Origin: a phage
Sequence record: PZ386974.1
Reading direction: 5' to 3' (one strand)
DNA: 64,000 bases
Shown here: in pieces, positions 9,056 through 62,126 of the stretch
Layout of the letters: every line of letters begins with the position of its first letter
Numbering within the stretch: position 1 is the first letter of the stretch
The notes under the pieces: model-generated
The model's database searches: none
The model's input: only the letters and a program-made list of their open reading frames with translations
Told to the model about the DNA's origin: nothing
Translations under genes and position numbers: made by a program

Positions 9056-10189
<1,134 letters not shown>

Positions 10190-33361: not shown

Positions 33362-33390
33362 ATACTATCATGTTTGAAGCAAAAGTAAAC
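33362..33390 (-). promoter_or_regulatory. sigma70-type early promoter for motA (-35 GTTTAC, 17 bp, -10 TAGTAT)
   Basis: Minus strand GTTTAC 33390..33385, TAGTAT 33367..33362; part of a 78-bp element duplicated at 33635..33712. Confidence 0.5.
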
Positions 33391-33682: not shown

Positions 33683-33711
33683 ATACTATCATGTTTGAAG
33701 CAAAAGTAAAC
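33683..33711 (-). promoter_or_regulatory. sigma70-type early promoter (duplicate of the motA promoter)
   Basis: Minus strand GTTTAC 33711..33706, TAGTAT 33688..33683. Confidence 0.5.
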
Positions 33712-54445: not shown

Positions 54446-54643
54446 ATGTTTAAACTTCCATCGTTAATCAACGCTATTAAAGGCAATAAAAAGAAAACTG
54501 CTATCGCTGCAATAGTTGTAGGTGGCATTATTTCATGGAACTTCGGGATTGCACCATTGTTAGTTGCCCATGGTATTATAGTTCCTTCTGTTCCATTGGA
54601 TACTGTAGTTGATTTGGCCTTTGCTATTATAGGGCTTGTTTAA
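54446..54643 (+). CDS. small membrane protein (65 aa, two predicted TM segments)
   Basis: Plus-strand ORF with strong SD AAGGAG 5 nt before ATG; stop overlaps the gene 61 stop convergently. Confidence 0.5.
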   Translation: MFKLPSLINAIKGNKKKTAIAAIVVGGIISWNFGIAPLLVAHGIIVPSVPLDTVVDLAFAIIGLV

Positions 54644-55662
54644 ATCTTCGAATAACGAGATAATCTCATTTTAGCATGCAACCCACTTGAAATATTCTGT
54701 TTCATATATTCTAAAATTTCTTGTGGTGTTGCATTTTCTTTCATTACCATATCATTCACATCCTTTGATCTCCATGGAGCTCGATCCCAGAACATGACAC
54801 GTTCGCCTGCATCAACTAATCGCTTCATGCGAGCTATAGTATCCGGATGCCTAGGTTCATTATCCATTACCCATACCCGACGCTCTTTAAATGGTACCAC
54901 ATCTAAATCTATTGAGCCGCCTGTAATAGCGATTGCGTTGGGTATGAATAAACTATCAATAGGACCTTCCATTACCCAGACGTCCCCTTCCTTAACACGT
55001 TCAACACCATAAATTTTTGTTGCAGACTCAAACGCTTTAATAGTGATATATTTCTGAGGAGCATCTTTACGAAGTGCACGTCCTTGGAACGACTCTGCCT
55101 TCCCATCTTTATTAAAAATAGGAATCACTAAACGCGGTTCAGGAATCTCTTTCTTATACGTACCCGGTTGAATCTTGTTGACCAATTTAGGCCATTCTAA
55201 TGTGAACCATAATCTGTTCCATGATTCTTTAGGAATGCATCGAGACTTAACATATTTCACAATAGGATGCTCTTCAGGCAGCTTGTCCAGACGAGAACAA
55301 GACGGCAAAGAATTTATAGTCTTTTTCTCCGGTTCTGGTTTATGTTCAGGAACCTTTTCAATCTTTGGTTCCATTCTAGCTTTTTCTTTACGAACTTCCA
55401 TTAGATACTCACGATAAAGCTCTTCATCATACTCTTTTAAGTATCCGGAAATTGTATTGTGGTATTGACAGTTATAGCAATGTACATTACCAGGAGTACC
55501 GCCATAATACCACCCGCGAGCTTTCATTGCATCTGTCTGGGAGTCGCCACAAACTGGACATCGAAACGTTAATTTAAATGTGCTTGAATTATTGATTTGT
55601 CTAAAACGAGGGAGGTGAGAAAACGCACGATAAGCAAATTCATTATCTATCCATTCAGCCAT
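54640..55662 (-). CDS. 61: DNA primase gp61
   Basis: 340 aa; N-terminal zinc ribbon CPVCGDS...CYNC and TOPRIM core; matches T4 gp61; ATG start. Confidence 0.9.
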   Translation of the reverse strand: MAEWIDNEFAYRAFSHLPRFRQINNSSTFKLTFRCPVCGDSQTDAMKARGWYYGGTPGNVHCYNCQYHNTISGYLKEYDEELYREYLMEVRKEKARMEPKIEKVPEHKPEPEKKTINSLPSCSRLDKLPEEHPIVKYVKSRCIPKESWNRLWFTLEWPKLVNKIQPGTYKKEIPEPRLVIPIFNKDGKAESFQGRALRKDAPQKYITIKAFESATKIYGVERVKEGDVWVMEGPIDSLFIPNAIAITGGSIDLDVVPFKERRVWVMDNEPRHPDTIARMKRLVDAGERVMFWDRAPWRSKDVNDMVMKENATPQEILEYMKQNISSGLHAKMRLSRYSKI

Positions 55663-55701: not shown

Positions 55702-56196
55702 TCACAACTTATTAATATTTACTTTAATTCGCTTTCTTTTCTTGGAAGGAATTTGTTCTGGACCTTTATTTACGACTGCACCCGTAGTTGTTCCTGATGC
55801 AATAGCTTGAGGACTGCCGCCTGAATCACCAGCAACCATATCCTCAAATAAAGGGAGTTCTTTAAATATTTCTTTCTGTTGTTCTTCCGTAATGTTATAG
55901 CGTGAAGCTACAGCACTCCAAGCAGACATCATTGATGCCATTCCATTAAGACCTGGAACAGTGCTCATCATTCGCTTCATTGAACGAACTGAAGCATGAA
56001 AAGGTGTATACGCCGCTTTTTCTTCGGGAGTAGAAGGACGTTTAAGAACACTTCCACGTTCATCGATGATTTTGGCTTCGTATGCTTTCCATTCGGTAAA
56101 AGGTTTTTGCATTAGTCGAATAAACTTATATGCATAAACAGAATCTATTGCAGTGTTAATAATACCCATAGGTACCTCCTGAGTATATTTAATCAA
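55702..56196 (-). CDS. hypothetical protein (164 aa)
   Basis: ORF track; 61-proximal ORF of the 41-61 interval. Confidence 0.5.
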   Translation of the reverse strand: MIKYTQEVPMGIINTAIDSVYAYKFIRLMQKPFTEWKAYEAKIIDERGSVLKRPSTPEEKAAYTPFHASVRSMKRMMSTVPGLNGMASMMSAWSAVASRYNITEEQQKEIFKELPLFEDMVAGDSGGSPQAIASGTTTGAVVNKGPEQIPSKKRKRIKVNINKL

Positions 56197-56386
56197 TTAC
56201 AAAGATTGCTTTGGCACCATTTATATCTGTGACTTCATATGTAGTGCCTTCATACTGTGGAATATTCCAAATTACACCATCATTAGCTTTTACGCTAATA
56301 TGGTATTGGTGTTTTGAAACAACTTCATAATCTTCAAAACTTGTAAAAACACTAATTTTAGAACCAGTGCAAATTGCAGTAGTCAT
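56189..56386 (-). CDS. hypothetical protein (65 aa)
   Basis: ORF track. Confidence 0.45.
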   Translation of the reverse strand: MTTAICTGSKISVFTSFEDYEVVSKHQYHISVKANDGVIWNIPQYEGTTYEVTDINGAKAIFVID

Positions 56387-56387
56387 T

Positions 56388-57047
56388 TTAACCTCGATTC
56401 ATAAATGCATTAAATATTTGGTCATCAACAGAAATTTCTAATTCGACTTCAATTGCTTCAGCCTTTTCTTCAGGTGGTAATTCGTATCCACACACTACAA
56501 TTTTTTCATCGATATCAAAATATACAGAAGCAATACGATTAATGTTATTTTCAGTTAAGTCCAAATCAACATCAACGTCTTTTTGGCCTACACTTAGAGG
56601 ATAACTAATACGGGTTATTTTATTATCTTTAACAAAGAGTCCACCAACATACTCTGTACTACGTTTGAAGTCTACACGTTTCCGAATTGAAAGATATGAT
56701 ACATCTTTACCGTGAGCTCGGCTCATAGGACATAATGAATAACTAGAATAAGAGATGTCAAATCCTACACCTTCAATATGAGCCAACGCGTCATGATTAA
56801 ACCAATTATAATCATATGCCAAATCCATTATATTGTAATATGTGAAAGGCACAGGATTAACATCATATGTTGTACCTTTAAAATCTGCCCAGGCAACGAT
56901 TTCGTTATCTTTAACAATTACAAAAATTACACCGAGATGGTATCCGTTATTATTTTCATTAGGCGTTATATTATAACATTGTGCATTAGGAAATTTACCA
57001 TATTTAAATGGTGCGTTTTTGTGCATATAATAAATCATATTATTCAC
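56388..57047 (-). CDS. hypothetical protein (219 aa)
   Basis: ORF track. Confidence 0.5.
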   Translation of the reverse strand: MNNMIYYMHKNAPFKYGKFPNAQCYNITPNENNNGYHLGVIFVIVKDNEIVAWADFKGTTYDVNPVPFTYYNIMDLAYDYNWFNHDALAHIEGVGFDISYSSYSLCPMSRAHGKDVSYLSIRKRVDFKRSTEYVGGLFVKDNKITRISYPLSVGQKDVDVDLDLTENNINRIASVYFDIDEKIVVCGYELPPEEKAEAIEVELEISVDDQIFNAFMNRG

Positions 57048-57333
57048 CTGTGATTTCGGTTACGATATCTTTGTTATCGAAATTAGGGTCACAATACAAG
57101 ACATAGTTGTACTGCATGATACCACCAGACTTAAGTTGTTCAACAACTTTATTAACCATATTAGGACGGTCTCGTTTAGTGATGTTCATGATATCAGAGA
57201 AGATTTGTTGTTCAACATCTTCTTGATTTGCAGTCATTGACCACTCACAGAGGTCTTTATCATAACCTGCCGTAACTGGAGCCGGTGTACATGATACTGC
57301 AAGTAAGATTGCTGCCAATGATAACTTTTTCAT
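57040..57333 (-). CDS. sp: Spackle-like periplasmic protein (superinfection exclusion / lysozyme inhibitor)
   Basis: 97 aa; signal peptide, mature region GYDKDLCEWSMTA...GGIMQYNYVLYCD resembles T4 Sp (61.3) as recalled. Confidence 0.6.
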   Translation of the reverse strand: MKKLSLAAILLAVSCTPAPVTAGYDKDLCEWSMTANQEDVEQQIFSDIMNITKRDRPNMVNKVVEQLKSGGIMQYNYVLYCDPNFDNKDIVTEITGE

Positions 57334-57396
57334 TTTAACTCCTTAGTTGATTTGATAGGACTACTATACTATAGTCCATCTATAATGTAAACAAGT

Positions 57397-57645
57397 TTAT
57401 TCTTTTTCGCGAATAATAATTACTTGTTGAGGCTGCTGAGCAGATTTCTTTTCGGCAACGATAGACCAAATTAAAGTTCCAATCCAACCAACCATCGTCC
57501 AGTTAAAGAGTAAAGATACAAAGAAGATTGCTGTTGTGCTTTTTGTGCCACGAATAAGTGCGATTATCCAAGGCAACATGTAAATGATGATTGAACCAAT
57601 ACCTGCGATTAAAACTGCTACTGAACTAGCTACGAATAATTCCAT
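57397..57645 (-). CDS. small integral membrane protein (82 aa)
   Basis: Two hydrophobic helices (VAVLIAGIGSIIIYMLPWIIALI; AIFFVSLLFNWTMVGWIGTLIWSIV) and charged C-tail. Confidence 0.5.
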   Translation of the reverse strand: MELFVASSVAVLIAGIGSIIIYMLPWIIALIRGTKSTTAIFFVSLLFNWTMVGWIGTLIWSIVAEKKSAQQPQQVIIIREKE

Positions 57646-57706
57646 GTTAATTTCCTCTTGATTTGTTATGTTTATAGTATCTTATTTTAACTTTGGTGTA
57701 AACCAA

Positions 57707-58075
57707 TTAGTTAAATTTGTTTAAACGTTCAATACACTGGATGTAGTTATTCGCTATTTGTTTCTGGGTAGGCTCTTTACCGGTTGTTTCAACATAGCGA
57801 ATGAATGCGATTTCAGTAGCCTGTAAGCAATGTTCTTTAACGCGTTGTTCTTTTGACAATGCTACAGTATCAGAGTCACGATACCGTTGAGCATGAGCAT
57901 CAGCTTGAATCATTCGATTACCTACAGTAACCGGGTCTTCCACTTCAACTTTAGGTTGGTCATACTGTTTAACATTCGGATTGTAAATCAATTGGCCAAC
58001 GTTATTAGGGATAAAGCCATGGGCACCACATCCGGTTAATCCGAATACCATTGCTAAAGCGATTAATTTTTTCAT
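57707..58075 (-). CDS. predicted lipoprotein (122 aa)
   Basis: Signal peptide with lipobox LTGC (MKKLIALAMVFGLTGC). Confidence 0.55.
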   Translation of the reverse strand: MKKLIALAMVFGLTGCGAHGFIPNNVGQLIYNPNVKQYDQPKVEVEDPVTVGNRMIQADAHAQRYRDSDTVALSKEQRVKEHCLQATEIAFIRYVETTGKEPTQKQIANNYIQCIERLNKFN

Positions 58076-58146
58076 TTCAATTTCCTCTGTAGTTGATAGA
58101 AAGATAGTAACACAGTATGCGGTGCTTGTAAACAGTTTATTTAAAA

Positions 58147-58335
58147 TTATCGAAAATCTGCTTCGAAAACTTTCTCGTCATTAACAAATGCTTTAACCAG
58201 TGCACTGTTCACTTCAGCAAGTTGTACCGTAACCCACTCGATTTCTTCGCGATCACCTGATAACATGATATCTTTAGTGAACATCTCACCGCTTTTAAAC
58301 CAGCCAATAAAAGTAACTTTAGTTAATTTGCTCAT
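58147..58335 (-). CDS. hypothetical protein (62 aa)
   Basis: ORF track; size and location compatible with a dmd-like gene, not verified. Confidence 0.4.
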   Translation of the reverse strand: MSKLTKVTFIGWFKSGEMFTKDIMLSGDREEIEWVTVQLAEVNSALVKAFVNDEKVFEADFR

Positions 58336-58649
58336 ATTTCCTCACAGAATGCCCATTCAGCATGATAAACTGTAGCACCTTTAGTATCATTCATTTGAAC
58401 TACATCTACCGGAGAAATTACTCGATAGAGACGTGGTTCACCTCCATAAGAGCGTGCTGCTCGTCCTGCATAAATCTTTGCTAAACCGATATCTTCAGTA
58501 AAGAATACACGATCCAAGTTTTTCTTACGTCCAGTTTCAGACAGAACTCCTGTTTCCTCAGGAGGACAAAGCATGTTTTCGATGTTAGCTGAACTACTTG
58601 AACCGTGATAAAAAATCTTAAATTCTGCTTTACAATCGATGGTTTTCAT
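58332..58649 (-). CDS. hypothetical protein (105 aa)
   Basis: ORF track. Confidence 0.5.
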   Translation of the reverse strand: MKTIDCKAEFKIFYHGSSSSANIENMLCPPEETGVLSETGRKKNLDRVFFTEDIGLAKIYAGRAARSYGGEPRLYRVISPVDVVQMNDTKGATVYHAEWAFCEEI

Positions 58650-58704: not shown

Positions 58705-59079
58705 TTAAAAATGTAATTTAGATACATCTGCGTTGATTTCACTTTGGTTTGCGTCATATGCAATTAAACGAACCGCTTTAGATGGGTCATTCAATGCATA
58801 GAAATGATGGAACATTGCTCGAACGATATCACCATTTACGAGTTCTACCTGGATAGGAGAACCTTTTTCGAGTTGGAAATGTTCATAAGCTTTGATGGTT
58901 CGCAGATAATCAAGTTTTTGATTTCCGGCTCCAACGATTTGTACGATACGTTTGCCCATGTTTTCCATACGAGATACAATAGATTTAGGAGCAAGAATAA
59001 CGTAGGTTGCCAGCGGAGAAACTACTTCAACAGTTGTGTTTTCGGTGATTGCAGTAAAAATTGCTTGAGACATATTCAT
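58705..59079 (-). CDS. hypothetical protein (124 aa)
   Basis: ORF track; ATG start. Confidence 0.5.
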   Translation of the reverse strand: MNMSQAIFTAITENTTVEVVSPLATYVILAPKSIVSRMENMGKRIVQIVGAGNQKLDYLRTIKAYEHFQLEKGSPIQVELVNGDIVRAMFHHFYALNDPSKAVRLIAYDANQSEINADVSKLHF

Positions 59080-59167: not shown

Positions 59168-60610
59168 TTAAAATTTTAACTCATTGGCTAAGCTATCTAG
59201 GTCAGCACGTGTTGCTTTGGCTTTACCTACGCGTTCCGTACGATTCACCTCTGCCTGACGCATCTGAGCACCTGCGTTTTCATTTACTGTGTTAGGTGTG
59301 TTCATGCCTTCTTGCTCAATCTCGATCCATTTCTGGTTGCCTTTACGTACACCCATCAGGAATTTATTCCACTTATTCTTATCACCATATCGTGATTTTA
59401 TTTGTTTGATAAGTTGTTGTTCAGCTTGTGCAAGTTCTTCGGTTTCAATTACGGCCAACATGAAATCTGCCGTTGCTGGTAAACCTGCTGATTCTGCGAT
59501 ATCACTCATGTTCATGTCTGAAGCATCCCATGCTGCACGTCCTACTTGAGCTGCAGTCCATAGAACTGTTTCAGATTCTACTGCTAATGCACGAAGTTCT
59601 TCTGCGATAGCTTTAACTAATGTGTAGCTATTTTCAGTGTAAACTCTGATACGACAAGACCCACAAATACCTAAGTAATCAACCATGATTACAGACGGCA
59701 CAAAGTTCTTCTTAAGTTTTAACTCATTAAGCAATGCACGAAATGTATTAGCATTAGCTCCACCAGTAGGATACTGTTTAACTACTAAACGTCCTAATGT
59801 GGATTTTGAACGCCATTTTTCCATCTTGGCTTTATATTCAGCATAAGATACGTTACCATCATCGATATCATCGAGTGATACGTCAAGCATGTTTGCATCT
59901 ATACGCTTAGCACAAACTTCTTCAGCCATTTCCATGGAAATATAAAGAACATTATGACCTGTTTGAAGATAATCTGCAGCAAGTGAACAAAGGCCTAAAG
60001 ATTTACCAACGTTAACACCGGCCATTAAAACATTCAGTGTACCGGTTTCAGCACCACCTTTAGTGATTTTATTCAGAATGTTTAATTTGAACGGGACCTT
60101 ACGTGCTTTATTTAGATAAGAAAGCCAGCGTGCTTCGTAGTCTTCCATCCAGTCATGTCCAACATAACTATCAAACGAAATTGAAAGTGCTTGACGCATA
60201 ATATCAGGAATAGCTCCTACGTCAGGCATTTTCTTGTTACGTTGTTCTGGAGGTAGTTCAGCATTAGACTGAATCTCAATGATTTTGGATGTAGCATTAT
60301 ACATCGCTTTTTGCTGGACATATTTCTCAGTTTCTTTAACCAACCATTCATGGTCTTCAGGAGTATCAGCCAATTTTTCAATTAGGTCTGAAGTTCCTTT
60401 ATATTCTGCTTCAGTTAAAGAACTATTATCTAAAGCCACCTTTAATGCATTGATAGATGGCATTGCATTATATTCGTTAACGTGGCTCTTTATAATTTTA
60501 AAGACGTTTTTTGCCGGTCCACGCTCAAAATACTCAGAATCCATATAAGGCCAGACCTTAGAAAAATAAGCCTGGTCATATACTAGATGAGACAAAATAA
60601 TTTCTACCAC
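59168..60610 (-). CDS. 41: replicative DNA helicase gp41 (DnaB-like)
   Basis: 480 aa; Walker A GVNVGKS and RecA-like core; GTG start with SD AAGGAG. Confidence 0.92.
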   Translation of the reverse strand: MVEIILSHLVYDQAYFSKVWPYMDSEYFERGPAKNVFKIIKSHVNEYNAMPSINALKVALDNSSLTEAEYKGTSDLIEKLADTPEDHEWLVKETEKYVQQKAMYNATSKIIEIQSNAELPPEQRNKKMPDVGAIPDIMRQALSISFDSYVGHDWMEDYEARWLSYLNKARKVPFKLNILNKITKGGAETGTLNVLMAGVNVGKSLGLCSLAADYLQTGHNVLYISMEMAEEVCAKRIDANMLDVSLDDIDDGNVSYAEYKAKMEKWRSKSTLGRLVVKQYPTGGANANTFRALLNELKLKKNFVPSVIMVDYLGICGSCRIRVYTENSYTLVKAIAEELRALAVESETVLWTAAQVGRAAWDASDMNMSDIAESAGLPATADFMLAVIETEELAQAEQQLIKQIKSRYGDKNKWNKFLMGVRKGNQKWIEIEQEGMNTPNTVNENAGAQMRQAEVNRTERVGKAKATRADLDSLANELKF

Positions 60611-60619
60611 GATAACTCC

Positions 60620-60961
60620 TTAAAAGAATTTAAATTTTTTCTTGGTCCGTTCATTAAAAGCTTGTTGTACTTGCATTGTAACACATTTTTCAACATGTGG
60701 TGCAAGTTCTGCTTTTCTGTCCTGATCAAGAACTGCAAAGTCCATTACGATTTTACCATCAACCCAGTCTAGTTTTGTAATATAGACTATATGATGGGAA
60801 CCGTCTTCAAGTGTAATCAGAATCTCTTGAATGACATTTTCCATTGCTGAACGGACAATTTTAAGAGATTCATTAAACACTCGTTCTTTGCGAATGTCTT
60901 CCCCTTCCGAAGAAGGGGATTCATCAACGATTTCTAGATTTAAATCATCGAGATTATTCAT
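60620..60961 (-). CDS. 40: gp40-like protein (head vertex assembly chaperone in T4)
   Basis: Track start 60982 is TTG; ATG at 60961 overlaps the uvsX 3' end; assignment rests on the uvsX-40-41 order. Confidence 0.45.
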   Translation of the reverse strand: MNNLDDLNLEIVDESPSSEGEDIRKERVFNESLKIVRSAMENVIQEILITLEDGSHHIVYITKLDWVDGKIVMDFAVLDQDRKAELAPHVEKCVTMQVQQAFNERTKKKFKFF

Positions 60962-62126
60962 CGAAATCTTCCATTTCGTCAAGGTCGTTTTCTATATCTG
61001 CTGCAGATGGAGCATCAGAAGTTTTAACCGGAACTTTAGTTGTTGCTTTGCAATTAATAAGGTCGTTAACAGCGTCATCAACTTCTTTAATAGAAGAGAT
61101 AGCACCTAGTTTATATTTAGTTTCAATTGCATCTCGGAAAGGTTTGTGTTTAAACAAAGGTCCCCAGAATTCTACACAATCAGTAGCTTTAGCACGCCAT
61201 GATTTTTCTTCACGAATCATTTCACCTGTTTCTTCGTCAAGGAATTCACGAGCATACCAACCGGCTTTAGGCTTAACTACAAAACCAATTTCAGTTGCCA
61301 TTTCTAACAAGCCACTGAATGGGTCAATACCGCCATCAAAATTAACCGTGATTGGGAAAGTAGATTTCTCTTTAACTGTACGAGATTTTTCTGCTTTCAA
61401 CGTGAAGTCATAACCGGTCAATTCTGTACCTTCTTTAACCTGACGTTTAGAGATAAAGAATACAGTGTTAGCAGAGTAAAGAATACCTGTACCACCACCC
61501 ATAATCTCTTTAGGATACAATCCGCCGATTTCCATTGCTGTATGGTTGATTGCAACACACGGAATATCTTTAATAGTCAGATAAGGAGTCACAATGCGGA
61601 ACAGAGATTTAAGTGCCTTAGCACGAGACATATCACCTACAACTTTCTCGTTCAACGCATCTTCGGTTTCTTTCTTAGATGCAGTATTACCAATCGAGTC
61701 AATAAAGATAATAACTTTATCACCGCGTTCAATAGCATCAAGCTGATTAGTCATATCAACTTTAAGTTGTTCGACAGATTGAATCGGAGTATGAACTACA
61801 CGGTCTAAATCAACACCCATTGAACGAAAATAAGATTCTGAAGCACCAAATTCCGAATCATAGAACAAACAAATTGCATCTTTATATTTCTTCATATATG
61901 CTGCAACCATGGTCAGTCCAAACAATGTTTTAAAATGTTTAGAAGGAGCAGCAAAAATAGTTAAGCCTGATTGCAACCCGGCATTCAGTGCACCACCTAA
62001 TGCAATATTCAACATCGGAATACGAGTAGGGACTTCATCACGATTATTAAACAGCTTAGACTTAGTCAAGTCTGCAGTCATTTTAGAAGTAGAAGCTTTA
62101 ATCAGACGAGATTTTAAATCAGACAT
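60954..62126 (-). CDS. uvsX: UvsX recombinase (RecA/Rad51 family)
   Basis: 390 aa; Walker A/B and collinearity with T4 UvsX as recalled; ATG start. Confidence 0.92.
   Translation of the reverse strand: MSDLKSRLIKASTSKMTADLTKSKLFNNRDEVPTRIPMLNIALGGALNAGLQSGLTIFAAPSKHFKTLFGLTMVAAYMKKYKDAICLFYDSEFGASESYFRSMGVDLDRVVHTPIQSVEQLKVDMTNQLDAIERGDKVIIFIDSIGNTASKKETEDALNEKVVGDMSRAKALKSLFRIVTPYLTIKDIPCVAINHTAMEIGGLYPKEIMGGGTGILYSANTVFFISKRQVKEGTELTGYDFTLKAEKSRTVKEKSTFPITVNFDGGIDPFSGLLEMATEIGFVVKPKAGWYAREFLDEETGEMIREEKSWRAKATDCVEFWGPLFKHKPFRDAIETKYKLGAISSIKEVDDAVNDLINCKATTKVPVKTSDAPSAADIENDLDEMEDFDE

Follow-up and report, generated by a model that had tools for sequence, protein, structure and literature searches.

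In the phage genome stretch analysed here (64,000 nucleotides of record PZ386974.1, referred to below as the window), three small genes lying side by side between gene 41 and the primase gene 61 are very probably the Mosigvirus orthologues of T4 imm.1, imm and sp, with Sp and Imm acting in superinfection exclusion as they do in T4; we estimate the probability of this explanation, taken as a whole, at about 0.85. An earlier note on this DNA had described three consecutive envelope-targeted open reading frames, and all three were recovered exactly where it had placed them, on the minus strand. Envelope targeting is indeed predicted from the sequence of each of the three proteins. They are encoded by real genes rather than by chance reading frames, since each one has significant family matches, its own Shine-Dalgarno sequence, of the GAGG type, and its own early-promoter-like site. 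What sets them apart from T4 is their position: imm.1, imm and sp, which form two distant groups in T4, are contiguous in Mosigvirus, and the association of imm.1 with imm proved to be conserved well beyond this genus.

The gene 41 to gene 61 interval of a Mosigvirus phage

The stretch is that of a Mosigvirus, a T4-type phage of the RB69/PhAPEC2 kind. Its region from 53 to 62 kb is a minus-strand gene run typical of T4-type phages, transcribed in the order uvsX, 40, 41, two small ORFs, dmd, imm.1, imm, sp, 61.2, a 65-aa ORF, 61.1 and the primase gene 61. The main features, in order of transcription, are the following; the promoters come from pattern and consensus scans.

60954..62126, minus strand: uvsX
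59168..60610, minus strand: gene 41
58705..59079, minus strand: small ORF between gene 41 and dmd
58332..58649, minus strand: ORF with a predicted Arr-like ADP-ribosyltransferase fold (AF2 model and structural match)
58147..58335, minus strand: dmd (Pfam, 4e-20)
58104..58133, minus strand: putative T4 early-type promoter of imm.1 (GTTTACA, 17-nt spacer, TACTAT)
57707..58075, minus strand: imm.1 homologue, predicted lipoprotein of 122 aa (DUF5481, phrog_1754, lipobox)
57674..57703, minus strand: putative T4 early-type promoter of imm (GTTTACA, 17-nt spacer, TACTAT)
57397..57645, minus strand: imm, predicted two-helix inner-membrane superinfection-immunity protein of 82 aa (T4 homology, Pfam, PHROG)
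57363..57392, minus strand: putative T4 early-type promoter of sp (GTTTACA, 17-nt spacer, TATAGT)
57040..57333, minus strand: sp (spackle, T4 61.3), 97 aa, predicted periplasmic inhibitor of gp5 (Pfam T4_Spackle, T4 homology)
56388..57047, minus strand: 61.2, AdfA, anti-DarT factor (Pfam, 3e-119)
56189..56386, minus strand: 65-aa ORF between 61.2 and 61.1
54640..55662, minus strand: primase gene 61

Across its whole length of 6.1 kb, the segment spanning genes 61 to 41 shows 98% identity to PhAPEC2, JK45 and about 150 other records, these near-identical records being Escherichia and Shigella phages of the genus Mosigvirus (RB69 group). In the GenBank record of PhAPEC2, the three genes are labelled sp, "similar to Imm" and "similar to Imm.1". 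The nature of the trio is hence already known, its arrangement being present and annotated in many public genomes, and as its homologues are known too, it is not new in kind. Regarding experimental work on the Mosigvirus Sp, Imm and Imm.1 proteins, none was found in the literature searched.

Sp, a close relative of T4 Spackle

The identification of the first gene as spackle, already made in the earlier note, is borne out by a match to the Pfam family T4_Spackle (PF25676) with an E-value of 2.2e-42 and 144 bits (cut-off 27), spanning residues 1–96 of 96, and by 65% identity to T4 Sp in a gapless pairwise BLASTP alignment. The protein begins with MKK followed by a hydrophobic stretch (residues 4–22), from which a signal peptide covering residues 1–22 is predicted, and at the predicted cleavage point its VTA|GYDK aligns without gap to AMA|GYDK of T4, where mature Spackle consists of the 75 residues from Gly23 to Glu97 (PMC7677548). 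Crystal structure and assays established that T4 Spackle binds the tail protein gp5's lysozyme domain in a 1:1 complex and inhibits the lysozyme, with contacts made through the main chain of S32–A35, Q37 and N76 and a disulfide bond linking C29 to C81 of Spackle (PMC7677548). All these residues are identical in the alignment of Mosigvirus Sp with T4 Sp. With the gp5-contact and disulfide residues all retained, Mosigvirus Sp would most naturally be taken to work in the same way; the remaining third or so of the residues, those that differ from T4, are presumably matched to the gp5 of Mosigvirus.

By analogy with T4, Sp would be exported and cleaved after Ala22, and the periplasmic protein would bind the gp5 lysozyme that a superinfecting phage carries on its tail tip and inhibit it. 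With gp5 inhibited, the tail tube would be unable to cross the cell wall, and lysis from without would also be prevented. The two Spackles thus share their length of 97 aa, the length of the signal peptide, the Cys29/Cys81 pair and the residues contacting gp5, and in both phages sp lies directly upstream of 61.2, whereas the upstream neighbour is imm in Mosigvirus and 61.4 in T4.

Imm, a predicted helical hairpin of the inner membrane

The middle gene encodes a protein with 64% end-to-end identity to T4 Imm (83 columns, E = 4e-37, pairwise BLASTP), which also matches the Pfam family Imm_superinfect (PF14373; 8.6e-16, 58 bits, cut-off 27.9) and phrog_1039, "immunity to superinfection" (5e-31). 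Kyte-Doolittle analysis delineates two hydrophobic segments, at about residues 1–34 and 40–59, with a basic loop, R32-G-T-K35, within the sequence RGTKS. The Mosigvirus protein (82 aa) and that of T4 (83 aa) have in common the two hydrophobic helices, the YMLPW motif, the RG(T/S)KS loop, the C-terminal QVIIIREKE and an imm.1 gene just before their own. They differ in their surroundings: imm is found between dmd and sp in Mosigvirus and between 43 and 42 in T4, and the gap separating it from imm.1 is 61 bp with a promoter-like site in the former but 11 bp in the latter.

T4 Imm is an inner-membrane protein that keeps superinfecting DNA from the cytoplasm, as stated in a review (PMC6832632) and, in agreement with it, in the T4 annotation. 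If the Mosigvirus protein acts likewise, it would insert in the inner membrane as a helical hairpin and stop the transfer of DNA across it, the incoming DNA thus ending in the periplasm.

Imm.1, a fast-diverging predicted lipoprotein

The third protein is a homologue of T4 Imm.1, to which it is 32% identical (E = 1e-18, pairwise BLASTP). It matches the Pfam family DUF5481 (PF17578) at 4.7e-9 with 37 bits (cut-off 27) and phrog_1754 at 1.2e-28, the family that T4 Imm.1 itself matches at 5e-42. At its N-terminus it has MKK, a run of hydrophobic residues and a lipobox of the PROSITE type, ALAMVFGLTG-C16, with Gly at position +2; the lipobox of T4 Imm.1 is LAG-C15. Lipoproteins without Asp at +2 are sorted to the outer membrane by the Lol system. 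Among family members with a lipobox, none has Asp at +2 in any lineage, and sorting of Imm.1 to the outer membrane is hence predicted. In two lineages (P0002 and P0009) a plain signal peptide replaces the lipobox and the cysteine is lost, from which it follows that the lipid anchor is dispensable. Taken together, the hydrophobicity and lipobox scans support the topologies proposed in the earlier note for the three proteins, namely a signal peptide, two transmembrane helices and a lipobox.

Beyond the N-terminus, members of the Imm.1 family have a segment of 30–50 residues predicted to be disordered and carrying a conserved (I/F)YNPxxK motif, a common AQxYRxS motif, and two cysteines (C83 and C114) which are invariant in the family alignments and located one on each helix of a C-terminal hairpin. 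This helical hairpin is the only confident part of the AF2 model (pLDDT 85–89), in which the N-terminal part is disordered and the mean pLDDT is 62.8. Compared with T4 Imm.1, the Mosigvirus protein has a lipobox as well, a similar size, the YNPNVK and AQxYR(D/N)S motifs and two C-terminal cysteines 31 residues apart, and in both phages imm.1 stands directly upstream of imm, behind a similar promoter and leader. Unlike the T4 protein, it has neither the VVxxSDVGK segment nor the extra cysteine pair, and its gene has been relocated.

The family is tiny: 1.8 billion proteins yielded seven representatives at E ≤ 1e-3 and a set of 5.8 billion yielded eight clusters, and no distant relative giving a functional clue was found in either set. 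Likewise, Foldseek comparison of the model with the PDB gave no match better than E = 2.7, the alignment profile retrieved no match among PDB sequences, and none of the three proteins of the trio matched NCBIfam. In the phage literature searched, imm.1 is named solely as a gene-content marker, being listed as a marker of the T4 group that is absent from the RB69 group (PMC5885020). This last statement is incorrect: the RB69 group has imm.1, diverged to 32% identity and moved to another place. As a tentative picture, in which we have limited confidence, Imm.1 may be periplasmic and usually anchored in the outer membrane, a protein in which a long flexible linker precedes a probably disulfide-stapled hairpin and which takes part with Imm in a joint exclusion step.

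Putative early-type promoters upstream of each gene

A site of the form GTTTACA-N17-TA(C/T)(T/A)(A/G)T is present 30–45 bp upstream of each gene of the trio. The pattern GTTTAC-N17-19-TANNNT, which we take to be the T4 early-promoter consensus, occurs at 25 sites in the window, all on the minus (coding) strand, as compared with 3.2 ± 1.8 sites (maximum 8) in shuffled sequences, and five of the 25 precede ORF041c, ORF040c, imm.1, imm and sp. We infer from these sequence features that the sites are functional promoters; as in T4, expression would then be immediate-early, and the three proteins would be made in the first minutes of infection.

The GTTTAC element upstream of sp is common to Mosigvirus and T4, and upstream of imm.1 the two phages align well through both promoter and leader (AAACTGTTTACAAG ... 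TACTAT ... CTATCAACTAC). That promoter and leader are so alike, while the encoded proteins share 32% identity, fits the relocation of the genes as one module together with their promoter.

A relocated imm.1-imm pair

In T4, the gene order is 43 > imm.1 > imm > 42 and, separately, dmd > 61.4 > sp, with some 6 kb separating the imm.1-imm pair from sp. The Mosigvirus pair, along with promoter and leader, is located between dmd and sp, where it replaces T4 61.4. Indeed, when all T4 proteins of the 41–61 interval were searched against the window by tblastn, 61.1, 61.2, sp and dmd were matched, and 61.4 had no counterpart in the 64 kb. Within the window, imm and imm.1 each have one match. The interval between 42 and 43 of PhAPEC2 contains sugar-modification genes and no imm, and a tblastn search located Imm at exactly one place in each of 1046 phage records. 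With one imm place per record and none between 42 and 43 in PhAPEC2, the Mosigvirus copy is the sole imm of the phage, relocated. No recombination scars showed up when the surroundings of the cluster were searched for repeats. The side-by-side position of imm.1, imm and sp is hence a gene-order variant at the level of the genus and not a new system.

Conserved linkage of imm.1 and imm in Tevenvirinae

The proximity of imm.1 to imm extends far beyond Mosigvirus. A phrog_1754 protein adjoins imm in nine of the nine Tevenvirinae lineages inspected, in three different arrangements. Besides Mosigvirus, the sample comprised Tequatrovirus (T4 and T2), two metagenomic lineages, Gelderlandvirus (STP4-a), Jiaodavirus (KpV477), Gaprivervirus (VR25 and TH57) and Dhakavirus (ABTNLS3). 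In T4 and most other Tevenvirinae, the pair stands beside the DNA polymerase gene 43, the two metagenomic lineages having the order 43 > imm.1 > imm > 42; imm.1 is upstream of imm in most lineages and downstream of it in Gaprivervirus and Dhakavirus, where the order is 43 > imm > imm.1-like. A lipobox is present in seven of the nine imm-adjacent phrog_1754 proteins, that of L005 (P0009) having a plain signal peptide and that of TH57 being left out. The homology of the STP4-a and KpV477 imm neighbours to Imm.1 was established via phrog_1754; hhalign of the small Imm.1 alignment against these neighbours gave weak matches (26–57% probability), mostly in the signal peptide. In the phage collection, Imm was found in 1046 records and four Imm.1-type queries in 657, 128, 154 and 112, with some overlap and always at one place per record, and these similar counts agree with a near-universal co-occurrence of the two proteins. 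The siphophages encoding Imm_superinfect proteins, as morons of the tail module, have no Imm.1 neighbour.

In comparisons between genera, the divergence of Imm.1 is about twice as rapid as that of Imm: VR25 and ABTNLS3 share 88% identity in Imm and 43% in Imm.1, and T4 and L005 share 80% and 37%, respectively. Within a genus, Imm.1 is near-invariant, with 98% identity between T2 and T4. As the adjacency has been kept through three rearrangements and in nine lineages despite this fast divergence of Imm.1, it is plausible, although we hold this tentatively, that Imm.1 and Imm are functionally linked. The broader proposal that Imm.1 is an unrecognised partner of Imm in superinfection immunity, and that Mosigvirus has assembled three envelope layers of exclusion, is a speculative possibility of similar weight.

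Alternative views of Imm.1 and of the trio

The strongest alternative, to which we give a little under even odds, is that each of the three genes works independently of the others and that their adjacency is meaningless, Imm.1 having a role unrelated to Imm such as envelope stabilisation or the timing of lysis. On this view, the region between 42 and 43 of the Mosigvirus ancestor would have been rebuilt around the arabinose-modification genes, and the imm.1-imm cassette would have reached the plastic 41–61 interval by chance. This interval brings together, as a mosaic, small early genes that are unrelated to one another (dmd, AdfA, an ORF resembling ADP-ribosyltransferases and other ORFs), and only in Mosigvirus does the pair stand beside sp. 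Each gene of the trio, moreover, has its own promoter, so that co-regulation needs no adjacency. Lu and Henning are also said to have found in 1989 that T4 can be excluded by plasmid-expressed Imm on its own, and, if so, Imm.1 is not strictly required. However, it is the adjacency of imm.1 to imm, and not that of the pair to sp, that has survived the rearrangements across the nine lineages, and that a protein diverging about twice as fast as its neighbour stays beside it is hard to explain without a functional link.

A second alternative concerns Imm.1 only, which could be an outer-membrane lipoprotein masking a phage receptor and thereby blocking adsorption. The phage lipoproteins Llp of T5 and Cor of T1 and phi80 act in this way, by blocking the receptor FhuA. 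Imm.1 resembles them in concept only, as a small phage lipoprotein, predicted to be expressed early, whose gene lies beside exclusion genes and whose lipobox, lacking Asp at +2 in every lineage, points to an outer-membrane destination; no similarity in sequence or fold between them emerged from Pfam, PDB or Foldseek searches, nor does Imm.1 resemble any solved or curated family in these resources or in NCBIfam, and its anchor has been lost in two lineages. T2 uses FadL and OmpF as receptors and T4 uses OmpC, and such near-identical Imm.1 proteins in two phages with different receptors argue against a role of the Llp or Cor type. Superinfecting T-even phages, in addition, still adsorb to infected cells. 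We therefore reject receptor masking, which appears improbable, the sequence of Imm.1 not tracking receptor usage between T2 and T4.

The view of the earlier note that both neighbours of sp are additional accessory factors for exclusion or envelope remodelling, absent from T4, retains almost no probability, for even if ORFs without T4 equivalent do occur between 41 and 61 (ORF041c, ORF040c and the 65-aa ORF at 56189..56386), both neighbours are clear and single-copy orthologues of T4 imm and imm.1, which contradicts it. The note was right in placing them within an exclusion and envelope theme, and its count of nine ORFs between 41 and 61, more than the five of T4, is exact. Regarding the T4 61.x genes, one-to-one homology to which it had named as speaking against its proposal, the two neighbours show none to 61.1–61.5 and correspond instead, one to one, to imm.1 and imm of the 43–42 interval.

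An ORF with a predicted ADP-ribosyltransferase fold next to dmd

Upstream of the trio, the ORF at 58332..58649 had no sequence match in Pfam, NCBIfam or the PDB. Its family, with identities of 60–99%, is distributed in T4-like phages of many hosts and absent from T4. Its AF2 model is confident (pLDDT 85, pTM 0.76), and structurally it is matched best by the rifampin ADP-ribosyltransferase Arr (probability 1.00, TM 0.61), with several ADP-ribosylating toxins next in rank; H15, Y60 and E103 are invariant in the family. In the model, the protein adopts an Arr-like ADP-ribosyltransferase fold. The ORF and dmd share an ATGA overlap, by which the two are translationally coupled. As a whole, the 41–61 interval can be read as an island of early genes serving counter-defence and exclusion.

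Significance for superinfection exclusion in T4-type phages

The main value of this analysis is a corrected reading, in which imm.1, imm and sp are standard superinfection-exclusion genes and not new accessory factors, and the trio also illustrates the difference in gene order that sets RB69-like phages apart from T4. The linkage of imm.1 to imm goes beyond existing annotation, and a conserved partner would provide a cheap and testable lead on the mechanism of Imm. If the partnership is true, Imm.1 may, for example, position Imm at the sites of injection or engage the incoming tail tip, and the early-gene island of Mosigvirus would then combine an outer-membrane lipoprotein, the periplasmic Sp and the inner-membrane Imm.

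A counter-defence and exclusion island

The three envelope-targeted genes imm.1, imm and sp stand between two counter-defence genes.

56388..57047, minus strand: homologue of T4 61.2, the anti-DarT factor AdfA (Pfam, 2.9e-119)
58147..58335, minus strand: dmd, antitoxin against RnlA/LsoA

adfA lies directly downstream of sp, its start overlapping the sp stop by 8 nt, and dmd is found directly upstream of imm.1. Because AdfA and dmd flank the imm.1-imm-sp genes, the 41-61 interval is a counter-defence and exclusion gene island. Regarding Sp, which is considered to be soluble, with signal-peptide cleavage following residue 22 (PMC7677548), its first 15 residues (57289..57333, minus strand) place a signal-peptide cysteine, Cys15, within a PROSITE-type lipobox context (LLAVS-C), and T4 Sp likewise has such a context (FALAS-C).

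A candidate ADP-ribosyltransferase upstream of dmd

58332..58649, minus strand: RB69ORF040c (phrog_2110), 105 aa

The stop codon of this ORF overlaps the dmd start as ATGA. T4 is without a counterpart, and sequence searches with the protein in Pfam, NCBIfam and PDB returned no match; its conservation reaches 60-99% among T4-like phages of Enterobacter, Pantoea, Serratia, Proteus, Acinetobacter and Vibrio. The best structural match of its AF2 model (pLDDT 85) is the rifampin ADP-ribosyltransferase Arr, followed by ART toxins, and H15, Y60 and E103 are invariant in the family. The model matches, together with these three residues, suggest that RB69ORF040c is a minimal H-Y-E ADP-ribosyltransferase.

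Small ORFs around 61.1 and gene 61

55702..56196, minus strand: 61.1 homologue, 164 aa, matching phrog_1823 at residues 109-160
56189..56386, minus strand: 65-aa ORF between 61.2 and 61.1 (phrog_3249, 5e-32)
54446..54643, plus strand: ORF for a very hydrophobic 65-aa protein; the PhAPEC2 annotation notes similarity to RB69ORF029w

While 61.1 is 164 aa long in this phage, it has 54 aa in T4, and only the last ~50 residues are common to both; in the related Mosigvirus PhAPEC2, 61.1 is annotated with a shorter start. The ORF separating 61.1 from 61.2 has no T4 counterpart and corresponds to an unannotated gap in the PhAPEC2 RefSeq record. The third ORF, a lone plus-strand ORF amid minus-strand genes whose end overlaps that of primase gene 61, encodes a further small membrane protein.

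Likely early promoters and the evolution of imm.1

Across the window, the pattern GTTTAC-N17-19-TANNNT has 25 matches, all 25 on the minus strand, versus 3.2 expected; judged by sequence, these sites clearly chart where early promoters are likely to lie throughout it. The matches at 33362..33390 and 33683..33711 are identical in sequence.

Contrary to the description of Imm.1 as a T4-group marker that the RB69 group lacks (PMC5885020), this group does possess imm.1; being relocated and 32% identical, it was probably missed by similarity clustering. In databases, the metagenome protein P0003 (198 aa) is a fusion in which a segment resembling DNA polymerase A (PF00476) is linked to the C-terminal 29 residues of Mosigvirus Imm.1; this chimera probably arose through assembly or gene calling. 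The imm.1 promoter and 5' leader (58076..58146, compared with 9515..9600 of the T4 record L002) are conserved far beyond the Imm.1 protein, for which this phage and T4 share 32% identity. This disparity suggests that the expression of imm.1 is under constraint while the protein itself changes rapidly.
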